IMG/VR virus record: IMGVR_UViG_2558860290_000019
Strand: one strand, 5' to 3'
Length of the DNA: 8,089 nucleotides
Source: a virus
Taxonomy: Duplodnaviria; Heunggongvirae; Uroviricota; Caudoviricetes
The first letter of the stretch is position 1; every line of letters begins with the position of its first letter. A program made the translations under genes and the position numbers. The notes beneath the pieces are model-generated. The model was not told the origin of the DNA, did no database searches, and was given only the letters and a program-made list of their open reading frames with translations. Shown here piece by piece: positions 1 through 8,089 of the stretch.

Positions 1-1152
1 TTATTTAAGAGTTCTTCCTATATTTATGCTTTTTTTCTCTATGGTTATATGCATGAGATATGCAAGAGTTGTAACAATAGAGAACGCAGCTATCAATGAT
101 ACTAGATAGCTAAAACCAGATCCAGTTAGGAATCTGATTATGCAATACCCTATCACTGAGTGGAGAGCATAAAAAGAATAACTTATATTTGCAAGAAATG
201 AGAGTGGTCTTACCTCTTTAAAGTAATCATTTAATAACATTGCGATTAAAAATACAATATAACCATAAATATAGTTTACTCCAACCTCAATAAATTGGTT
301 GCTCTGTGGGCCGCATTTCCACGTCATTCCTACAAGGATAGCTGTCATCATTGTTGAAGCTATGAACTCGCCTGTATTAATTCGCTTTTCAAAATAAAAG
401 TTAAGCAGAATACCAAGAGTCATATATGAAATGTACATGAATTCTATCTTTAACGCATCGAAAGAAAAGAATCCCTGCTGACTTGAGCCAAGCCCTAAGT
501 TTGCTGTAAAAAATGTAATGGCGAATACAGATATTGGGATGCATAATAACTTTATTATATTTGCACTTCTTATTGCCCCATATACCAAAAGACAAGTTAT
601 ATAGAATTTTATCTCTATAGATAGGGTCCAGTTTACATAATCAATGCTTCCATAGTTGAATATAGATGCAAGCAATGTAATATTGTATATAAAACGATCC
701 ATTGAGATACTATTTGCAGAACCCCAAAAGATGTTGCTTGCGGTAAATACTGCAAGCATTATAAGAGAACATACTATGTATGTAGGGTATATTCTTATTA
801 TCCTTGCAAATAGGTAACCAAGTGGAGACTTGTTTCTCATTGAATATGTTAAAACAAACCCGCTAATTATGAAGAATATAGATACCCCAAACGGACCATA
901 ATTAAAATATGGTAAAGGAGGAAGTATTGATATGTAATAAGCTGAATTTCCAGTGCTCACGTCAGGAGCGCCGGTCACAGAGCTGATGAATGTAGGATTT
1001 AGTGAGTATATGCCAAGCCAGTGGACTGCAACTACACTCAAAAAAGCTATAGCCCTTAACTGTGAAGCGAAGATGACTCTGCCTTTCTTTTTTGTATCCA
1101 CCACTTCATGGATGGCATTGCTTTGAATGCCATCCTGCGCTTGTTGCGCCAT
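1..1152 (-). CDS. Acyltransferase family 3 (OafA/Oac-like) integral membrane protein; AT-rich cargo gene at the P2 Z/fun-equivalent slot
   Basis: Complete minus-strand ORF (stop TAA at 1..3). Two in-frame ATGs: 1170 has no Shine-Dalgarno, while the ATG at 1152 (Met7) is preceded by AAGAGG (1159..1164) with a 6-nt spacer, so 1152 is preferred (383 aa; 389 aa from 1170). The protein is very hydrophobic with multiple predicted membrane segments and carries Acyl_transf_3-type motifs: LRAIAFLSVVAVH (Arg...His in the first helix), GVSIFFIISGF, ARIIRIYPTY and NWTLSIEIKFY (compare the WSLSVE motif). The gene is far more AT-rich than the tail genes and is divergent from FI. Confidence 0.8.
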   Translation of the reverse strand: MAQQAQDGIQSNAIHEVVDTKKKGRVIFASQLRAIAFLSVVAVHWLGIYSLNPTFISSVTGAPDVSTGNSAYYISILPPLPYFNYGPFGVSIFFIISGFVLTYSMRNKSPLGYLFARIIRIYPTYIVCSLIMLAVFTASNIFWGSANSISMDRFIYNITLLASIFNYGSIDYVNWTLSIEIKFYITCLLVYGAIRSANIIKLLCIPISVFAITFFTANLGLGSSQQGFFSFDALKIEFMYISYMTLGILLNFYFEKRINTGEFIASTMMTAILVGMTWKCGPQSNQFIEVGVNYIYGYIVFLIAMLLNDYFKEVRPLSFLANISYSFYALHSVIGYCIIRFLTGSGFSYLVSLIAAFSIVTTLAYLMHITIEKKSINIGRTLK

Positions 1153-1256
1153 TTCTAACCTCTTTTCCATTTAAAATTTAATCTAAGTAGAGAAAAAACA
1201 AAATGGGATTATTCATCATTGTTGATTAAAGATAAAGAGGGTATGTACAAAACTAA

Positions 1257-1277
1257 CACCCACTGAGTGAGTGGGTG
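1257..1277. repeat. Perfect 8-bp inverted repeat CACCCACT-N5-AGTGGGTG at the AT-rich/GC-rich junction; possible operator or leftward stem-loop
   Basis: Read directly: CACCCACT (1257..1264), GAGTG loop, AGTGGGTG (1270..1277). On the minus strand the stem is followed by TTAGTTTTGT, a weak U-rich tail. Function is not established. Confidence 0.25.
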
Positions 1278-1403
1278 CAGGCCGGGTGGTTGCTGGCTGC
1301 GGGGGAGTCACGTCAACGCGTGGCGCTGATTTTTGATATTGGCCTGTCCACGCTCTATAAAAAATTCCCCTCATCAGTGCCAAAAAATAAATTGTGTCAT
1401 CCC

Positions 1404-1420
1404 TTGTCCAACCGGGACAA
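1404..1420 (+). promoter_or_regulatory. Dyad TTGTCC-N5-GGACAA upstream of FI; candidate activator site of the late promoter (PF-equivalent)
   Basis: Perfect 6-bp inverted repeat centred at about 1412, roughly 72 bp upstream of the FI ATG, with only weak -10-like hexamers downstream (TATCAC 1451..1456), as expected for an activator-dependent promoter. Caveat: the Ogr-family consensus I recall is TGT-N12-ACA, whereas this dyad is TGT-N9-ACA, so the assignment is tentative. Confidence 0.3.
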
Positions 1421-1483
1421 ATAGCCTGACATCGCCGGCACAACTGAAAATATCACTCACCCATTAACCACGGAGTTAAACGG

Positions 1484-2674
1484 ATGAGTGACTATCATCA
1501 CGGCGTGCAGGTGCTGGAGATTAACGACGGCACCCGCGTCATTTCCACCGTATCCACCGCCATTATTGGCATGGTCTGCACGGCCAGCGATGCGGATGCG
1601 GAAACCTTCCCCCTCAATAAACCGGTGCTGATTACCAATGTGCAGAGCGCAATTGCAAAGGCCGGTAAAAAAGGCACGCTGGCGGCGTCGTTGCAGGCCA
1701 TCGCTGACCAGTCAAAACCGGTCACCGTTGTCGTGCGCGTGGAAGACGGAACCGGCGACGACGAAGAAACGAAACTCGCGCAGACCGTTTCCAATATCAT
1801 CGGCACCACTGACGAAAACGGTCAGTACACCGGACTGAAAGCCCTGATGGGCGCTGAGTCGGTTACCGGCGTTAAACCGCGTATTCTCGGCGTACCGGGA
1901 CTGGACACCAAAGAGGTCGCCGTCGCACTGGCATCGGTATGCCAGGAACTGAATGCCTTCGGGTATATCAGCGCATGGGGTTGTAAAACCATTTCCGAGG
2001 TGAAAGCCTACCGCCAGAATTTCAGCCAGCGTGAGCTGATGGTCATCTGGCCGGATTTCCTCGCATGGGATACGGTTACCAGTACCACCGCCACCGCGTA
2101 TGCCACCGCCCGTGCGCTGGGTCTGCGCGCTAAAATCGACCAGGAGCAGGGCTGGCATAAAACGCTGTCCAACGTCGGGGTGAACGGTGTTACCGGCATC
2201 AGTGCATCCGTCTTCTGGGATTTGCAGAAGCCCGGCACTGATGCTGACCTGCTGAACGAGTCAGGCGTCACTACGCTGATTCGCCGCGACGGTTTCCGTT
2301 TCTGGGGTAACCGTACCTGCTCTGATGACCCGCTGTTCCTCTTTGAAAGCTACACACGCACCGCGCAGGTACTGGCCGACACGATGGCTGAGGCGCACAT
2401 GTGGGCTATTGATAAGCCCATCACCGCAACGCTGATTCGCGACATCATTGACGGCATCAATGCCAAATTCCGTGAACTGAAAAACAACGGTTATATCGTG
2501 GATGGCTCATGCTGGTTCAGCGAAGAATCCAACGATGCGGAAACCCTCAAGGCCGGAAAACTGTATATCGACTACGACTATACCCCGGTGCCTCCTCTTG
2601 AAAATCTGACCCTGCGCCAGCGTATTACTTCCAGATACCTGGCAAGTCTGGTCACTTCGGTTAACAGCAATTAA
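1484..2674 (+). CDS. FI: Contractile tail sheath protein (P2 gpFI family)
   Basis: 396-codon ORF with GGAG (1472..1475) 8 nt upstream of the ATG. N-terminus MSDYHHGVQVLEINDGTRVI; length and position as first gene of the FETUD order match P2 gpFI (396 aa as I recall). Immediately followed by the tube gene. Confidence 0.93.
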   Translation: MSDYHHGVQVLEINDGTRVISTVSTAIIGMVCTASDADAETFPLNKPVLITNVQSAIAKAGKKGTLAASLQAIADQSKPVTVVVRVEDGTGDDEETKLAQTVSNIIGTTDENGQYTGLKALMGAESVTGVKPRILGVPGLDTKEVAVALASVCQELNAFGYISAWGCKTISEVKAYRQNFSQRELMVIWPDFLAWDTVTSTTATAYATARALGLRAKIDQEQGWHKTLSNVGVNGVTGISASVFWDLQKPGTDADLLNESGVTTLIRRDGFRFWGNRTCSDDPLFLFESYTRTAQVLADTMAEAHMWAIDKPITATLIRDIIDGINAKFRELKNNGYIVDGSCWFSEESNDAETLKAGKLYIDYDYTPVPPLENLTLRQRITSRYLASLVTSVNSN

Positions 2675-2686
2675 GGAGCCTGACCG

Positions 2687-3205
2687 ATGGCAATGCCGCG
2701 CAAACTCAAGTTAATGAACGTCTTTCTGAACGGCTACAGCTATCAGGGCGTTGCAAAGTCCGTCACGCTGCCAAAACTGACCCGTAAGCTCGAAAACTAT
2801 CGCGGTGCGGGGATGAACGGCAGCGCACCGGTGGACCTCGGCCTTGATGACGATGCGCTGTCAATGGAGTGGTCGCTCGGGGGCTTCCCGGATTCGGTTA
2901 TCTGGGAGCTTTACGCCGCAACCGGTGTGGATGCTGTGCCGATTCGTTTTGCAGGCTCTTACCAGCGTGACGATACCGGCGAAACGGTGGCCGTCGAGGT
3001 GGTCATGCGTGGACGTCAGAAAGAAATCGACACCGGCGAGGGTAAACAGGGAGAAGACACCGAGTCGAAAATCTCCGTGGTCTGCACCTATTTCCGGCTG
3101 ACGATGGACGGTAAGGAGCTGGTCGAAATCGACACCATCAACATGATTGAGAAGGTGAACGGCGTCGACCGGCTGGAGCAACACCGCCGCAATATCGGCC
3201 TGTGA
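2687..3205 (+). CDS. FII: Tail tube protein (P2 gpFII family)
   Basis: 172-codon ORF with GGAG (2675..2678) 8 nt upstream of the ATG. Size and position match P2 gpFII (172 aa as I recall). Confidence 0.93.
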   Translation: MAMPRKLKLMNVFLNGYSYQGVAKSVTLPKLTRKLENYRGAGMNGSAPVDLGLDDDALSMEWSLGGFPDSVIWELYAATGVDAVPIRFAGSYQRDDTGETVAVEVVMRGRQKEIDTGEGKQGEDTESKISVVCTYFRLTMDGKELVEIDTINMIEKVNGVDRLEQHRRNIGL

Positions 3206-3212
3206 TTTTCAT

Positions 3213-3233
3213 CCGGTCAGCCTGGCTGACCGG
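3213..3233 (+). terminator. GC-rich stem-loop (9-bp stem, 3-nt loop) between FII and E with no U-tract; possible partial terminator/attenuator or mRNA 3' stabiliser
   Basis: CCGGTCAGC (3213..3221), CTG, GCTGACCGG (3225..3233), a perfect inverted repeat. It is followed by TTAACCCC, not a canonical U-run. It lies 8 nt after the FII stop and about 29 nt before the E start. Confidence 0.3.
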
Positions 3234-3261
3234 TTAACCCCGATTCATAAGTGAGAAAACC

Positions 3262-3537
3262 ATGAACAAAGAAAATGTGATTACCCTGGACAATCCGGTC
3301 AAACGTGGTGAGCAGGTTATCGAACAGGTCACGCTGATGAAACCCAATGCGGGGACGCTGCGCGGTGTCAGTCTGGCTGCGGTCGCAAACTCCGAAGTCG
3401 ATGCACTGATTAAAGTGCTGCCGCGCATGACGGCACCGATGCTGACCGAGCAGGAAGTCGCCGCGCTGGAACTGCCTGACCTTGTGGCGCTGGCCGGTAA
3501 GGTGGTCGGTTTTTTGTCGCCGAACTCGGTGCAGTGA
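3262..3537 (+). CDS. E: Tail assembly chaperone (P2 gpE family)
   Basis: 91-codon ORF (MNKENVITLDNPVKRGEQVIEQV ... GFLSPNSVQ). Size and position match P2 gpE. A TTTTTTG run lies near its 3' end. Confidence 0.9.
   Translation: MNKENVITLDNPVKRGEQVIEQVTLMKPNAGTLRGVSLAAVANSEVDALIKVLPRMTAPMLTEQEVAALELPDLVALAGKVVGFLSPNSVQ
3510..3516 (+). promoter_or_regulatory. Slippery heptamer T_TTT_TTG in the E frame; candidate programmed frameshift site for E+E'
   Basis: In the E frame the codons are GGT TTT TTG, giving the X_XXY_YYZ pattern. Programmed -1 frameshifting at TTTTTTG to make gpE+E' is the established P2 mechanism. See the findings for the frame anomaly in this sequence. Confidence 0.55.
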
Positions 3538-3691
3538 CGTTTCCAAAAAAATACTCTCGGTCGATGACCTGATGGCGGATGTGGCAGTGGTATTTCACTG
3601 GCCGCCATCAGAACTGTATCCCATGAGCCTGACCGAACTCATCACATGGCGCGAAAAGGCGCTCCGGCGAAGTGGAAACACGAATGAGTAA
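3515..3691 (+). CDS. E': E' reading frame (C-terminal extension of gpE, expressed only as an E+E' frameshift fusion); in this sequence it lies in the +1 phase relative to E
   Basis: Open frame with no convincing own start, overlapping the 3' end of E and ending at TAA 3689..3691, which overlaps the T start. C-terminal part reads LSVDDLMADVAVVFHWPPSELYPMSLTELITWREKALRRSGNTNE. The 5' boundary is nominal, because the true fusion point depends on the shift site. Confidence 0.6.
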   Translation, partial: CRRTRCSDVSKKILSVDDLMADVAVVFHWPPSELYPMSLTELITWREKALRRSGNTNE

Positions 3692-6132
3692 CAATGTAAA
3701 ATTACAGGTATTGCTCAGGGCTGTTGACCAGGCATCCCGCCCGTTTAAATCCATCCGCACAGCGAGTAAGTCGCTGTCGGGGGATATCCGGGAAACACAA
3801 AAATCACTGCGCGAGCTGAACGGTCAGGCATCCCGTATTGAGGGATTTCGCAAGACCAGTGCACAGCTCGCCGTGACTGGTCATGCACTTGAAAAGGCAC
3901 GGCAGGAGGCCGAAGCCCTTGCCACACAGTTTAAAAACACCGAACGTCCGACACGTGCTCAGGCGAAAGTGCTGGAATCCGCAAAGCGTGCGGCGGAGGA
4001 CTTACAGGCGAAATATAACCGCCTGACGGATTCCGTTAAACGCCAGCAGCGGGAACTGGCCGTTGTGGGAATTAATACCCGCAATCTTGCACATGATGAG
4101 CAGGGACTGAAAAACCGTATCAGTGAAACCACCGCACAGCTTAACCGTCAGCGTGACGCGCTGGCGCGTGTCAGTGCGCAACAGGCAAAACTTAACGCAG
4201 TAAAACAGCGTTATCAGGCAGGCAAGGAACTGGCCGGAAATATGGCCTCAGTGGGCGCTGCCGGTGTGGGGATTGCGGCGGCGGGAGCGATGGCCGGAGT
4301 TAAGTTGCTGATGCCCGGTTATGAGTTTGCGCAGAAAAACTCAGAATTGCAGGCCGTGCTCGGAGTGGCAAAAGACTCCGCCGAAATGACCGCACTACGC
4401 AAACAGGCGCGCCAGCTCGGCGACAATACCGCCGCTTCGGCGGATGATGCGGCCGGTGCACAGATAATCATCGCGAAAGCGGGTGGGGATGTTGATGCCA
4501 TTCAGGCGGCAACGCCGGTCACGCTGAATATGGCGCTGGCGAACCGCCGCACGATGGAAGAAAACGCCGCCCTGCTGATGGGGATGAAATCCGCCTTTCA
4601 GCTTTCAAACGATAAGGTCGCTCATATCGGGGATGTTCTCTCCATGACGATGAACAAAACCGCCGCCGATTTTGACGGCATGAGCGATGCGCTGACCTAT
4701 GCCGCACCTGTAGACAAAAAATGCCGGTGTCAGCATTGAAGAAACCGCCGCAATGGTCGGGGCGCTGCATGATGCAAAAATCACAGGCTCAATGGCGGGG
4801 ACGGGAAGCCGTGCCGTGTTAAGCCGCCTGCAGGCACCGACGGGAAAAGCATGGGATGCACTCAAAGAGCTTGGTGTGAAAACCTCAGACAGCAAGGGAA
4901 ACACCCGGCCAATATTTACCATTCTGAAAGAAATGCAGGCCAGTTTTGAGAAAAACCGGCTCGGTACTGCCCAGCAGGCTGAATACATGAAAACTATTTT
5001 CGGGGAGGAGGCCAGCTCAGCCGCCGCCGTGCTGATGACTGCCGCCTCAACCGGAAAGCTGGACAAACTGACCGCTGCGTTTAAAGCCTCAGACGGGAAG
5101 ACTGCCGAGCTGGTAAATATCATGCAGGACAACCTCGGCGGTGACTTTAAGGAGTTTCAGTCCGCTTATGAGGCGGTGGGGACTGACCTGTTTGACCAGC
5201 AGGAAGGCGCACTGCGTAAGCTCACACAGACGGCCACAAAGTATGTGTTAAAACTCGACGGCTGGATACAGAAAAACAAATCACTGGCGTCAACCATTGG
5301 CATCATTGCCGGTGGCGCGCTGGCGCTTATTGGCATCATCGGTGCCATTGGTCTTGTAGCCTGGCCGGTTATCACCGGCATCAATGCCATTATCGCGGCA
5401 GCAGGCGCAATGGGGGCAATCTTCACGACGGTTGGCAGTGCTGTTATGACGGCCATCGGGGCGATTAGCTGGCCGGTTGTGGCTGTGGTGGCCGCCATTG
5501 TCGCCGGGGCGTTGCTTATCCGTAAATACTGGGAGCCTGTCAGCGCATTCTTCGGCGGTGTGGTTGAAGGGCTGAAAGCAGCATTTGCGCCGGTGGGGGA
5601 ACTGTTCACGCCACTTAAGCCGGTGTTTGACTGGCTGGGTGAAAAGTTACAGGCCGCGTGGCAGTGGTTTAAAAACCTGATTGCCCCGGTCAAAGCCACC
5701 CAGGACACCCTGAACCGTTGCCGTGATACTGGCGTCATGTTCGGGCAGGCACTGGCTGACGCGCTGATGCTGCCGCTTAATGCGTTCAACAAACTGCGCA
5801 GCGGAATTGACTGGGTACTGGAAAAACTCGGTGTTATCAACAAAGAGTCAGACACACTTGACCAGACCGCCGCCAGAACTCAAGCCGCCACGAATGGCAG
5901 CGGTGGTTATATTCCGGCGACCAGCTCTTATGCAGGCTATCAGGCTTATCAGCCGGTCACGGCACCGGCTGGCCGCTCTTATGTGGACCAGAGTAAAAAC
6001 GAATATCACATCAGCCTGACCGGTGGTACTGCGCCGGGGACACAGCTTGACCGCCAGTTACAGGATGCGCTCGAAAAATACGAGCGGGATAAACGTGCGC
6101 GCGCCCGTGCCAGCATGATGCATGACGGTTAA
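3684..6132 (+). pseudogene. T: Tail tape measure protein (P2 gpT family), interrupted by a frameshift in an A6 run (4716..4721); possibly a homopolymer sequencing error
   Basis: N-terminal ORF from ATG 3684 (MSNNVKLQVLLRAV; the track's GTG at 3672 is less likely) ends DKKCRCQH with TGA at 4737..4739. The +1 frame is open from 4714 and reads TKNAGVSIEETAAMVGALHDAKITGSMAG through to TAA 6130..6132. Removing one A gives a continuous AAPVDKNAGVSIEE junction and an 815-codon ORF, which matches my recollection of P2 gpT length. The N-terminus is coiled-coil-like (Q/R/A-rich) and the centre has glycine-rich hydrophobic segments (GIIAGGALALIGIIGAIG), both typical of tape measure proteins. Confidence 0.8.
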
Positions 6133-6146
6133 GGAGGTGACGAAAA

Positions 6147-6626
6147 ATGATGCTCGCGTTAGGTATGTTTGTTTTTATGCGCCAGACGCTGCCACACCAG
6201 ACCATGCAGCGTGAATCAGATTATCGCTGGCCGTCAAATTCCCGTATCGGTAAACGGGATGCCTTTCAGTTTCTCGGTGTGGGTGAGGAAAACATCACGC
6301 TTGCCGGTGTGCTTTATCCAGAACTGACCGGCGGCAAGCTGACGATGACCACGCTCAGGCTGATGGCAGAGGAAGGCCGGGCGTGGCCGTTGCTGGATGG
6401 CACCGGCATGATTTACGGCATGTATGTCATCAGCAGGGTGAGTGAAACAGGGAGTATTTTCTTTGCAGACGGCACACCCCGGAAAATTGATTTTACGCTG
6501 TCGCTCACCCGCGTTGATGAATCACTGGCCGCGCTTTATGGCGATATCGGTAAACAGGCGGAATCGCTCATCGGTAAGGCTGGCAGTATGGCGACCAGAT
6601 TCACGGGTATGACGGGGGCGGGATAA
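6147..6626 (+). CDS. U: Tail protein gpU (P2 gpU family)
   Basis: 159-codon ORF with AGGAGG (6132..6137) 9 nt upstream of the ATG. Size and position match P2 gpU. Confidence 0.88.
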   Translation: MMLALGMFVFMRQTLPHQTMQRESDYRWPSNSRIGKRDAFQFLGVGEENITLAGVLYPELTGGKLTMTTLRLMAEEGRAWPLLDGTGMIYGMYVISRVSETGSIFFADGTPRKIDFTLSLTRVDESLAALYGDIGKQAESLIGKAGSMATRFTGMTGAG

Positions 6627-7789
6627 TGCTGGATGCGCTGACATTTGATGCAGGCAGTACACTGACGCCGGATTATATGCTGATGCTCGACAGCAGGGAT
6701 ATTACCGGCAATATCAGCGACCGTCTGATGAGCATGACCCTGACGGATAACCGGGGCTTTGAGGCTGACCAGCTTGATATTGAACTGAATGATGCCGACG
6801 GGCAGGTCGGGCTGCCGGTTCGTGGCGCTGTCCTGACGGTGTATATCGGCTGGAAAGGTTTTGCCCTGGTATGCAAAGGGAAATTTACCGTTGATGAGGT
6901 CGAACACCGGGGCGCGCCGGATGTGGTCACCATCCGCGCCCGGAGTGCAGATTTTCGCGGGACGCTCAATTCCCGCCGTGAAGGCTCCTGGCATGACACC
7001 ACGCTCGGTGCGATTGTTGAGGCGATAGCCTCCCGTAACAGGCTGGAAGCCAGTGTCGCGCCGTCACTGGCAGGAATTAAAATCCCGCACATCGACCAGT
7101 CGCAGGAGTCCGACGCGAAATTCCTGACCCGTCTTGCAGAACGCAACGGCGGTGAGGTGTCGGTAAAAATGGGAAAACTGTTGTTTCTCAAAGCGGGGCA
7201 GGGGGTGACGGCCAGTGGTAAAAAAATCCCGCAGGTCACCATAACCCGCAGCGACGGCGACCGCCATCATTTTGCGATTGCTGACCGTGGAGCCTATACC
7301 GGCGTAACGGCAAAGTGGTTACACACCAAAGACCCGAAGCCGCAAAAGCAGAAGGTAAAACTGAAACGCAAAAAGAAAGAGAAACACCTGCGCGCACTGG
7401 AGCACCCGAAAGCGAAACCGGTCAGGCAGAAGAAAGCGCCTAAAGTACCGGAAGCGCGCGAAGGTGAATACATGGCCGGTGAGGCTGACAACGTTTTTGC
7501 CCTGACCACGGTATATGCCACAAAAGCGCAGGCCATGCGCGCCGCTCAGGCGAAGTGGGATAAACTGCAACGGGGCGTTGCGGAGTTCTCCATCAGCCTG
7601 GCTACCGGTCGGGCAGATATTTACACGGAAACACCGGTCAAAGTGTCTGGCTTTAAGCGCGTCATAGACGAGCAGGACTGGACAATCACTAAGGTGACAC
7701 ACTTTCTGAATAATTCCGGCTTCACGACGTCCTTAGAGCTTGAGGTCAGGCTTTCTGATGTGGAGTACGAAACAGAAGATGATGAGTGA
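6626..7789 (+). CDS. D: Tail protein gpD (P2 late control gene D family, baseplate hub-like)
   Basis: 387-codon ORF whose ATG overlaps the U stop (TAATG, 6624..6628), suggesting translational coupling. Size and position match P2 gpD. Contains a lysine-rich low-complexity segment (7325..7468). Confidence 0.88.
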   Translation: MLDALTFDAGSTLTPDYMLMLDSRDITGNISDRLMSMTLTDNRGFEADQLDIELNDADGQVGLPVRGAVLTVYIGWKGFALVCKGKFTVDEVEHRGAPDVVTIRARSADFRGTLNSRREGSWHDTTLGAIVEAIASRNRLEASVAPSLAGIKIPHIDQSQESDAKFLTRLAERNGGEVSVKMGKLLFLKAGQGVTASGKKIPQVTITRSDGDRHHFAIADRGAYTGVTAKWLHTKDPKPQKQKVKLKRKKKEKHLRALEHPKAKPVRQKKAPKVPEAREGEYMAGEADNVFALTTVYATKAQAMRAAQAKWDKLQRGVAEFSISLATGRADIYTETPVKVSGFKRVIDEQDWTITKVTHFLNNSGFTTSLELEVRLSDVEYETEDDE

Positions 7790-7807
7790 TGTTTTTATTT
7801 TATCTGT

Positions 7808-7836
7808 TTGTTTTATAAGGATAAATTAACTAAAAT
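7808..7836 (+). promoter_or_regulatory. Candidate sigma70 promoter for ogr: -35 TTGTTT (7808..7813), 17-nt spacer, -10 TAAAAT (7831..7836)
   Basis: Hexamers and spacing read directly from the AT-rich D-ogr intergenic region. The predicted start site at about 7843 would give a roughly 28-nt leader containing AAGAGG (7857..7862). Confidence 0.35.
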
Positions 7837-7870
7837 GGCACCATCAACAAAACCGGAAGAGGTGCTCGCG

Positions 7871-8089
7871 ATGTTTCATTGTCCTTTATGCCAGCATGCC
7901 GCACATGCGCGTACAAGTCGCTATATCACTGACACGACAAAAGAGCGTTATCACCAGTGCCAGAACGTGAATTGCAGCGCCACGTTCATCACTTATGAGT
8001 CGGTACAGCGATACATCGTGAAGCCGGGAGAAGTCCACGCCGTAAGACCGCACCCGTTGCCGTCAGGGCAGCAAATTATGTGGATGTAA
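7871..8089 (+). CDS. ogr: Ogr, zinc-finger transcriptional activator of late genes (Ogr/Delta family)
   Basis: 72-codon ORF MFHCPLCQHAAHARTSRYITDTTKERYHQCQNVNCSATF..., with the Cys-x2-Cys ... Cys-x4-Cys zinc-binding pattern. AAGAGG lies 8 nt upstream of ATG 7871. The track's longer ORF from TTG 7808 is rejected because it lacks an RBS and would run through the promoter-like region. The stop TAA is at 8087..8089, the window edge. Confidence 0.9.
   Translation: MFHCPLCQHAAHARTSRYITDTTKERYHQCQNVNCSATFITYESVQRYIVKPGEVHAVRPHPLPSGQQIMWM

Follow-up and report, generated by a model that had tools for sequence, protein, structure and literature searches.

Two private lesions beside A6 tracts in the tail operon of a P2-like prophage are most likely sequencing artefacts

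The stretch of DNA analysed here (the window, 8,089 nt) is the tail-gene end of a P2-like (Peduovirus) prophage, carrying the operon FI, FII, E/E', T, U, D and ogr, and as it stands in the record the reading frame of this operon is broken at two places, one in the region of E' and one in T. Are these breaks damage to the prophage, or damage to its sequence? A sequence-only reading had raised the question by noting that an A7 tract (3545-3551) and an A6 tract (4716-4721) lie at the two breaks, and by offering miscalled homopolymers and slipped-strand mutation as the possible causes. Both tracts are present in the sequence, and both discontinuities are real in the record, as the open reading frames (ORFs) and their translations confirm. 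We also agree with the earlier view that the answer decides whether tails can be produced, as a prophage that truly carried these lesions could not make them. From comparison with other copies of the locus, we conclude that the breaks are probably base-calling or consensus artefacts superimposed on an intact, ordinary P2-type tail operon.

On either side of the broken segment the genes are intact. Upstream of the tail operon lies an acyltransferase family 3 cargo gene (1..1152, minus strand; Pfam PF01757), which is annotated as an acyltransferase in CP103972 and has a GC content of 33-39%, versus 55-59% in the tail operon. This cargo gene carries neither lesion. After a resolvase HTH remnant (1266-1424) come, on the plus strand, the tail sheath gene FI (1484..2674), a 396-aa ORF whose relatives are annotated as phage tail sheath protein, and the tail tube gene FII (2687..3205), a 172-aa ORF assigned from annotations in relatives. 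Beyond T, and also on the plus strand, are gene U (6147..6626, from the ORF list and the annotation in a relative), gene D (6626..7789, from the ORF list) and the late transcription activator gene ogr (7871..8089). Exact-protein look-up found proteins identical to FI in many assemblies, and a protein identical to D is likewise widespread. The region spanning 3200-4800 is 97.5-98.1% identical to the corresponding region of phages P2, L-413C and vB_YpM_46, the value for P2 being 97.5%. Homologues of this region are found in about 1,600 of 5,426 complete E. coli genomes, and many E. coli genomes harbour 2-4 P2-like prophages each.

The first of the two breaks lies just downstream of a site at which a change of frame is expected. 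Gene E (3262..3537, plus strand, frame 1) encodes an intact tail assembly chaperone of 91 aa (Pfam PF10109 Phage_TAC_7, E=2.6e-12), and near its 3' end is the slippery heptamer T_TTT_TTG (3510..3516, plus strand), the site of the programmed -1 frameshift that produces E+E'. The heptamer is intact and in phase, its zero-frame codons being GGT TTT TTG, and it is invariant in an alignment with P2, L-413C and YpM46. In P2, a 91-aa E and a 142-aa E+E' are made from one start codon by -1 ribosomal frameshifting at TTTTTTG (PMC3091744), and the same frameshift of E/E+E' is also listed in PMC5009743; as cited in these two papers, the FETUD frameshift is credited to Christie et al. 2002 and to Xu, Hendrix and Duda 2004. 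The sequence-only reading did not separate this intact programmed frameshift from the lesion that follows it.

In its position and domain content, the E/E' pair of the window is of the P2 type. The two overlapping ORFs sit between the tail tube gene FII (2687-3205) and the tape-measure gene T (which begins at 3684), and both Pfam domains of a P2-type pair are present, Phage_TAC_7 in E and Phage_P2_GpE in E'. The GpE domain itself is undamaged (3551..3691, plus strand; Pfam PF06528 Phage_P2_GpE, E=5.8e-23), and the remainder of E' that encodes it occupies frame 2, offset by +1 from E. Because this frame is +1 and not -1 relative to E, ribosomes that make the programmed slip would read the plus strand from 3516 to 3572 and terminate at the TGA at 3570-3572, and the predicted product is a protein of 103 aa that lacks the GpE domain, compared with 142 aa for the wild-type E+E'. 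Translation of the window therefore yields no -1 frame that is open to an E+E' of ~142 aa. Such a product is encoded by three clonal relatives of the window, L203, L207 and L210, which are described below, and by a further copy, L004 (142 aa).

The displacement of the GpE frame is caused by lesion 1 (3545..3553, plus strand), at which the window has A7-T-A and the aligned relatives have A6-T. Two extra A's are present, one within the tract (A6>A7) and one at 3553, between the T and the C, and together they shift the remainder of E' 2 nt out of register. Across this site (site 1) the relatives read TTTCC-[A/G]AAAAA-TCT[C/G]-TCGG and the window reads TTTCC-AAAAAAA-TACTC-TCGG; within the window's own lineage, the sequence is CC-A6-TCTCTC where the window has CC-A7-TACTCTC. 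The interval between the flanking anchors is 10 nt in every one of 135 public copies and 12 nt in the window. The sequence-only reading had taken the A7 tract to be one A short, but this invariant interval indicates that the site has two A's too many. An in-frame A8 lineage was found neither among the 135 public copies nor among 1,501 E. coli genomes.

The second break splits T inside its PF10145 domain. The N-terminal fragment (3684..4739, plus strand) is 351 aa in length, ends in VDKKCRCQH before the stop codon and matches profile positions 1-106 of Pfam PF10145, and the C-terminal fragment (4753..6132, plus strand, frame 1) is an ORF of 459 aa that matches profile positions 121-201. What breaks the gene is lesion 2 (4710..4715, plus strand), GTAGAC in place of the GTGGC of relatives, which amounts to one inserted A together with a G>A change and a net gain of 1 nt. 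Across this site (site 2) the relatives have CCTGTGGC-AAAAAA-TGCC and the window has CCTGTAGAC-AAAAAA-TGCC. The edits are located 1-4 nt upstream of the A6 tract (4716..4721, plus strand), which is of wild-type length, and the earlier proposal that this tract has one A too many does not hold, the extra A and the G>A change both being upstream of it. The A6 is kept in 152 of 155 public copies, and the other three have a base substitution inside the tract that leaves the length of the interval unchanged; this interval is always 12 nt among the 155 copies and is 13 nt in the window. A one-base deletion at 4712 restores, on translation, a T of 815 aa. Of the idea that both breaks are single-nucleotide changes in homopolymers, what survives is that both are at or beside A tracts; the lesions themselves are complex, with two edits in each.

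The most informative comparison is with genomes of the same lineage. Searching with the acyltransferase protein encoded in the window brought up this prophage lineage in three independent assemblies: L207 (Logan, SRR29542936), L203 (an ENA metagenome scaffold) and L210 (GCA_054728915.1). L207 is identical to the window over 8,086 nt save the two lesion clusters, and L203 and L210 each differ from the window by one unrelated SNP beyond the lesions. All three encode an 815-aa T and have E' in the -1 frame, and L203 and L207 continue through the full set of P2 morphogenesis genes. Three substitutions in the window (3673T, 4287G and 5893A) had been considered as private SNPs that might signal relaxed selection in T, but they are private only with respect to the first 19 relatives that were compared; they proved to be lineage polymorphisms common to L203, L207 and L210, and this sign of relaxed selection was dropped. 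As these substitutions are shared with the clonal relatives, the private changes of the window are the two clusters only, with no private SNP. Each cluster packs 2 edits into 3 nt, and an A is gained with every one of them. Recombination, or the collapse of paralogous prophages into one sequence, was also considered and rejected, as comparison with L207 gave no SNPs that would mark a chimera, and neither lesion allele is a blend of known variants.

Beyond this lineage, neither lesion was encountered again. When 5,426 complete E. coli genomes were searched by megablast with 71-76-mers, the window allele was found in 0 of the 1,501 genomes with a match at site 1, and in 0 of the 1,344 with a match at site 2. 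Exact-pattern scans of GTDB species representatives, IMG/VR and JGI metagenome contigs detected neither allele, and neither is present in plasmid records (PLSDB) or phage records. The public copies referred to above were collected by a variable-gap pattern scan of IMG/VR and of all fetched loci, and none of them varied in length (0/135 at site 1 and 0/155 at site 2). At the protein level, the ORF products specific to the lesions (T fragments of 351, 355 and 459 aa, and a 69-aa E' ORF) are absent from an index of 153 billion genes, as judged by exact-protein look-up. Two events that are each rarer than approximately 1 in 1,300, found in a single record at a distance of 1.2 kb from each other, are very unlikely as independent mutations and argue for a shared cause.

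The sequence-only reading had also suggested surveying other homopolymers for similar frameshifts. We carried this out within the window, counting A/T tracts of 5 or more and G/C tracts of 4 or more, and comparing their lengths with those of the clonal relative L207: 68 of 69 tracts are identical, and only the tract at site 1 differs. Tracts of correct length include T7 (30-36) and A7 (7220-7226). Seven-base tracts should attract errors no less often than A6, and the correct length of these two counts against a purely systematic homopolymer error. The proximity of the breaks to A tracts is nevertheless not a matter of chance, given a probability of ~6e-4 that two random positions would both be 5 nt or less from an A/T run of at least 6. 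On inspection of the sequence, neither the Dam motif GATC nor the Dcm motif CCWGG was found at the lesions.

Other public copies of the locus also contain broken tail genes, and these bear on the question in both directions. T is frame-broken in 7 of 152 public copies. L190 matches its nearest relative with 0 mismatches but has four G-tract deletions in T, and T also has two G4>G3 deletions in L119 and an A5>A4 change in L011; in L206, a 3.2-kb deletion removes FII-E-T. We regard the indels of L190 and L119 as the same behaviour in other public records, and count them in favour of an artefact. The deletion in L206 and the change in L011 indicate that real decay of such prophages exists, and count against it.

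The record therefore carries two lesions that are unique to it, and everything else in it is identical to independent assemblies. As no other public copy has these lesions, including three that are otherwise identical, they are most likely errors, and their cause is most likely technical. We propose that two local base-calling or consensus errors occurred, each of which would have added A's inside an A6 tract or immediately next to it. At site 1, A6-TC would have been rendered as A7-TAC, and at site 2, GTGGC-A6 as GTAGAC-A6, which on the minus strand corresponds to T6-GCCAC becoming T6-GTCTAC. In both cases, the base of the tract itself would have been repeated, either within the tract or, on one strand, a few positions further along, a pattern that points to mis-segmentation or carry-over of signal at a homopolymer rather than to replication slippage. 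The true DNA would then most likely be as in the clonal relatives, with E' in the -1 frame, an E+E' of 142 aa and a T of 815 aa.

Several observations are consistent with this proposal. Both variants are confined to this record, and clonal relatives that were sequenced independently do not have them; the two lesions also involve the same base and the same direction of change, each no more than 4 nt from an A6 tract. As natural divergence, two complex events without a single ordinary substitution, on a background that is that of three other assemblies, would be very improbable; with an error rate that belongs to one assembly, two such events are unremarkable. In long-read assemblies, most residual errors are indels in homopolymers, which shift the reading frame of genes, and insertions predominate in the drafts (PMC8011154). 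Among Nanopore insertion errors, a surplus A following TCCA or CCCA is frequent (PMC12007338), and the tract at site 1 is preceded by TCC.

The lesions could instead be genuine and very recent mutations that have left a freshly defective P2-like prophage, a reading that we consider unlikely, though it deserves serious weight. Such a prophage would make gpE and a truncated E+E' of 103 aa, and its tape measure would be split into pieces of 351 and 459 aa. Both lesions adjoin A6 tracts, where polymerase errors are enriched, and broken T genes and deletions are known from other public copies (the 7 of 152, and L206). The accuracy of the other 68 tracts argues that the record is not grossly error-ridden, and the 2-4 P2-like prophages of many E. 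coli genomes make complementation or relaxed selection possible. Replication slippage, however, alters the length of a tract by whole units, and here each lesion is composed of two edits within 3 nt, with the tract at site 2 unchanged. At neither site is the change confined to the repeat tract, and tract-length polymorphism is absent among the related genomes (135 and 155 public copies, respectively). The earlier choice between artefact and mutation was a live one, on which the comparisons favour the artefact, but the signature of slipped-strand mutation that had been read into the sequence is not borne out, as edits lie outside the tracts. Genuine mutation would also require that two complex events arose independently, unaccompanied by any ordinary substitution, on the background of three other assemblies, and the length of each tract is constant across more than 1,300 genomes.

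Real lesions might also be tolerated if the A tracts served as recoding or phase-variation sites that allow a leaky, stochastic, low-level production of tails. Lesion 1 creates an in-phase A_AAA_AAA, and the -1 frame of the window, CCA AAA AAA TAC, is formally a perfect X_XXY_YYZ site at which a second -1 slip, or transcriptional slippage, would give an E+E' of 143 aa. The product of this double slip would retain the entire GpE domain (FPKKILSVDD... vs FPKNLSVDD...), and the tape measure would be restored by slippage on the A6 of T, the whole amounting to a 'savior indel plus compensatory frameshifting' in a phage tail operon. We find this highly improbable, as in E. coli A_AAA_AAA shifts far less readily than A_AAA_AAG, the low efficiencies of two events would multiply, and T would require a +1 shift at C_AAA_AAA, without a known signal. 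In addition, the stretches on which RNA polymerase is described to slip efficiently are 9 A or T long (PMC5009743), neither tract is polymorphic in the population, and the lesions are private to one record. The literal form of the sequence-only reading, in which an ancestral A8 at site 1 and an ancestral A5 at site 2 each changed by one A, is scarcely credible. One more A at 3545-3551, or one fewer at 4716-4721, does formally restore the frames, but no relative has A8 or A5, and it is refuted by the ancestral states, A6-TC and GTGGC-A6, as seen in the clonal relatives and in all other copies. The 'repaired' proteins would moreover gain a residue (KKIL for KNL) and replace an invariant Ala with Asp.

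Taken at face value, the record describes a tail-less prophage; the comparisons made here suggest that the operon is most probably intact, and that its two 'pseudogenes' should be left out of any tally of prophage decay. Were the lesions real, there would be no functional E+E' or tape measure, and no tails unless a co-resident P2-like prophage complemented the defect. The case would then be an ordinary one of recent prophage inactivation, and there is no new biology either way. For records of this kind, a clonal relative from an independent assembly serves better than guessing which homopolymer is off, a guess that was wrong here at both sites.

The operon type itself is standard and already well understood. 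Like the P2 FETUD operon, it has the order FI-FII-E-E'-T-U-D-ogr, with T_TTT_TTG at the end of E and GpE downstream; unlike in P2, the E' of the window is displaced by +2 nt, the -1 frame ends after 19 codons and T is interrupted. The clonal relatives, unlike the window, keep the standard P2 arrangement. Around five edits in 8 kb, a figure that is our own estimate for a polished long-read-only assembly and not a computed value, would be comparable to what is seen in the window. The lesions resemble the homopolymer errors of long-read or flow-based sequencing (Homopolish, PMC8011154; Kastor, PMC12007338) in that private indels fragment conserved genes and the same base is gained. They differ from the classical residual error, which is a clean change in tract length and usually a deletion, in having insertions that extend beyond the neighbouring nucleotide, together with a substitution. 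With slipped-strand contingency loci they share a frame-changing event at a poly-A tract in a coding region, but here the tracts are just 6 nt, there is no polymorphism in more than 1,300 genomes, and one lesion lies outside its tract. If the lesions were real, the closest likeness would be to defective P2-like prophages such as L206, with its 3.2-kb FII-E-T deletion, and L011, with A5>A4 in T; those copies, however, have a single simple lesion or a large deletion on a divergent background, whereas the window has two complex micro-lesions and no other change.

Near-identical versions of the window's prophage are found at two chromosomal sites. The first, adjoining yegQ (Peptidase_U32), is the location of the window's clonal relatives (public copies L203, L207 and L210), whereas the second, adjoining pflB/focA/ycaO, hosts the copies L006-L009, L204-L206 and L208-L209. 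Over window positions 1-3040 we found only 2-3 differences from L006-L009, and over the right half (3043-8089) the divergence from these copies is approximately 1-2%, with other P2-like prophages providing a better match. The window's prophage lineage is a mosaic, reflecting the recombination that is usual among peduoviruses.

At the left end of the window, upstream of FI, lies a family 3 acyltransferase gene (1-1152, minus strand; PF01757), whose GC content is 33-39% versus 55-59% in the tail operon. Its position is the cargo slot occupied by Z/fun in P2, and its product may modify surface polysaccharide. The contents of this slot are varied amongst relatives, and include a recombinase and several hypothetical proteins. 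Next to the acyltransferase gene is a remnant of the C-terminal HTH_7 domain of a resolvase/invertase (1266-1424, plus strand; PF02796), which the CP103972 annotation lists as a truncated pseudogene; three other public copies (L005, L012 and L015) carry an intact recombinase of 197 aa at this place. The first three nucleotides of the window (1-3) are exactly the acyltransferase stop codon on the reverse strand and the last three (8087-8089) exactly that of ogr; the window appears to have been cut at gene boundaries.

Gene T is frame-broken in 7 of the 152 full-length public copies. Copies broken by clean 1-nt homopolymer changes include L190, L119, L011, L084 and L165, with four G-tract deletions in L190 (IMGVR_UViG_2874920711_000012), which has 0 mismatches to its nearest relative, two G4>G3 changes in L119 (IMGVR_UViG_2627854066_000009), and A5>A4 in L011 (AP024126.1, the copy at 1.70 Mb). 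Several of the broken copies look like cases of systematic sequencing error. A clear instance of genuine decay of the tail operon is the related prophage copy L206 (GCA_031091795.1), where a deletion of approximately 3.24 kb, corresponding to window positions ~2885-6130, has removed the 3' end of FII together with E, E' and T.

In the relatives, the wild-type E' frame at the place of window positions 3543-3551 reads CCA AAA AAT. The tract A_AAA_AAT that it contains is formally an X_XXY_YYZ heptamer, located approximately 30 nt 3' of the programmed T_TTT_TTG. P2 proper differs here, reading CCG AAA AAT where the window's relatives read CCA AAA AAT.
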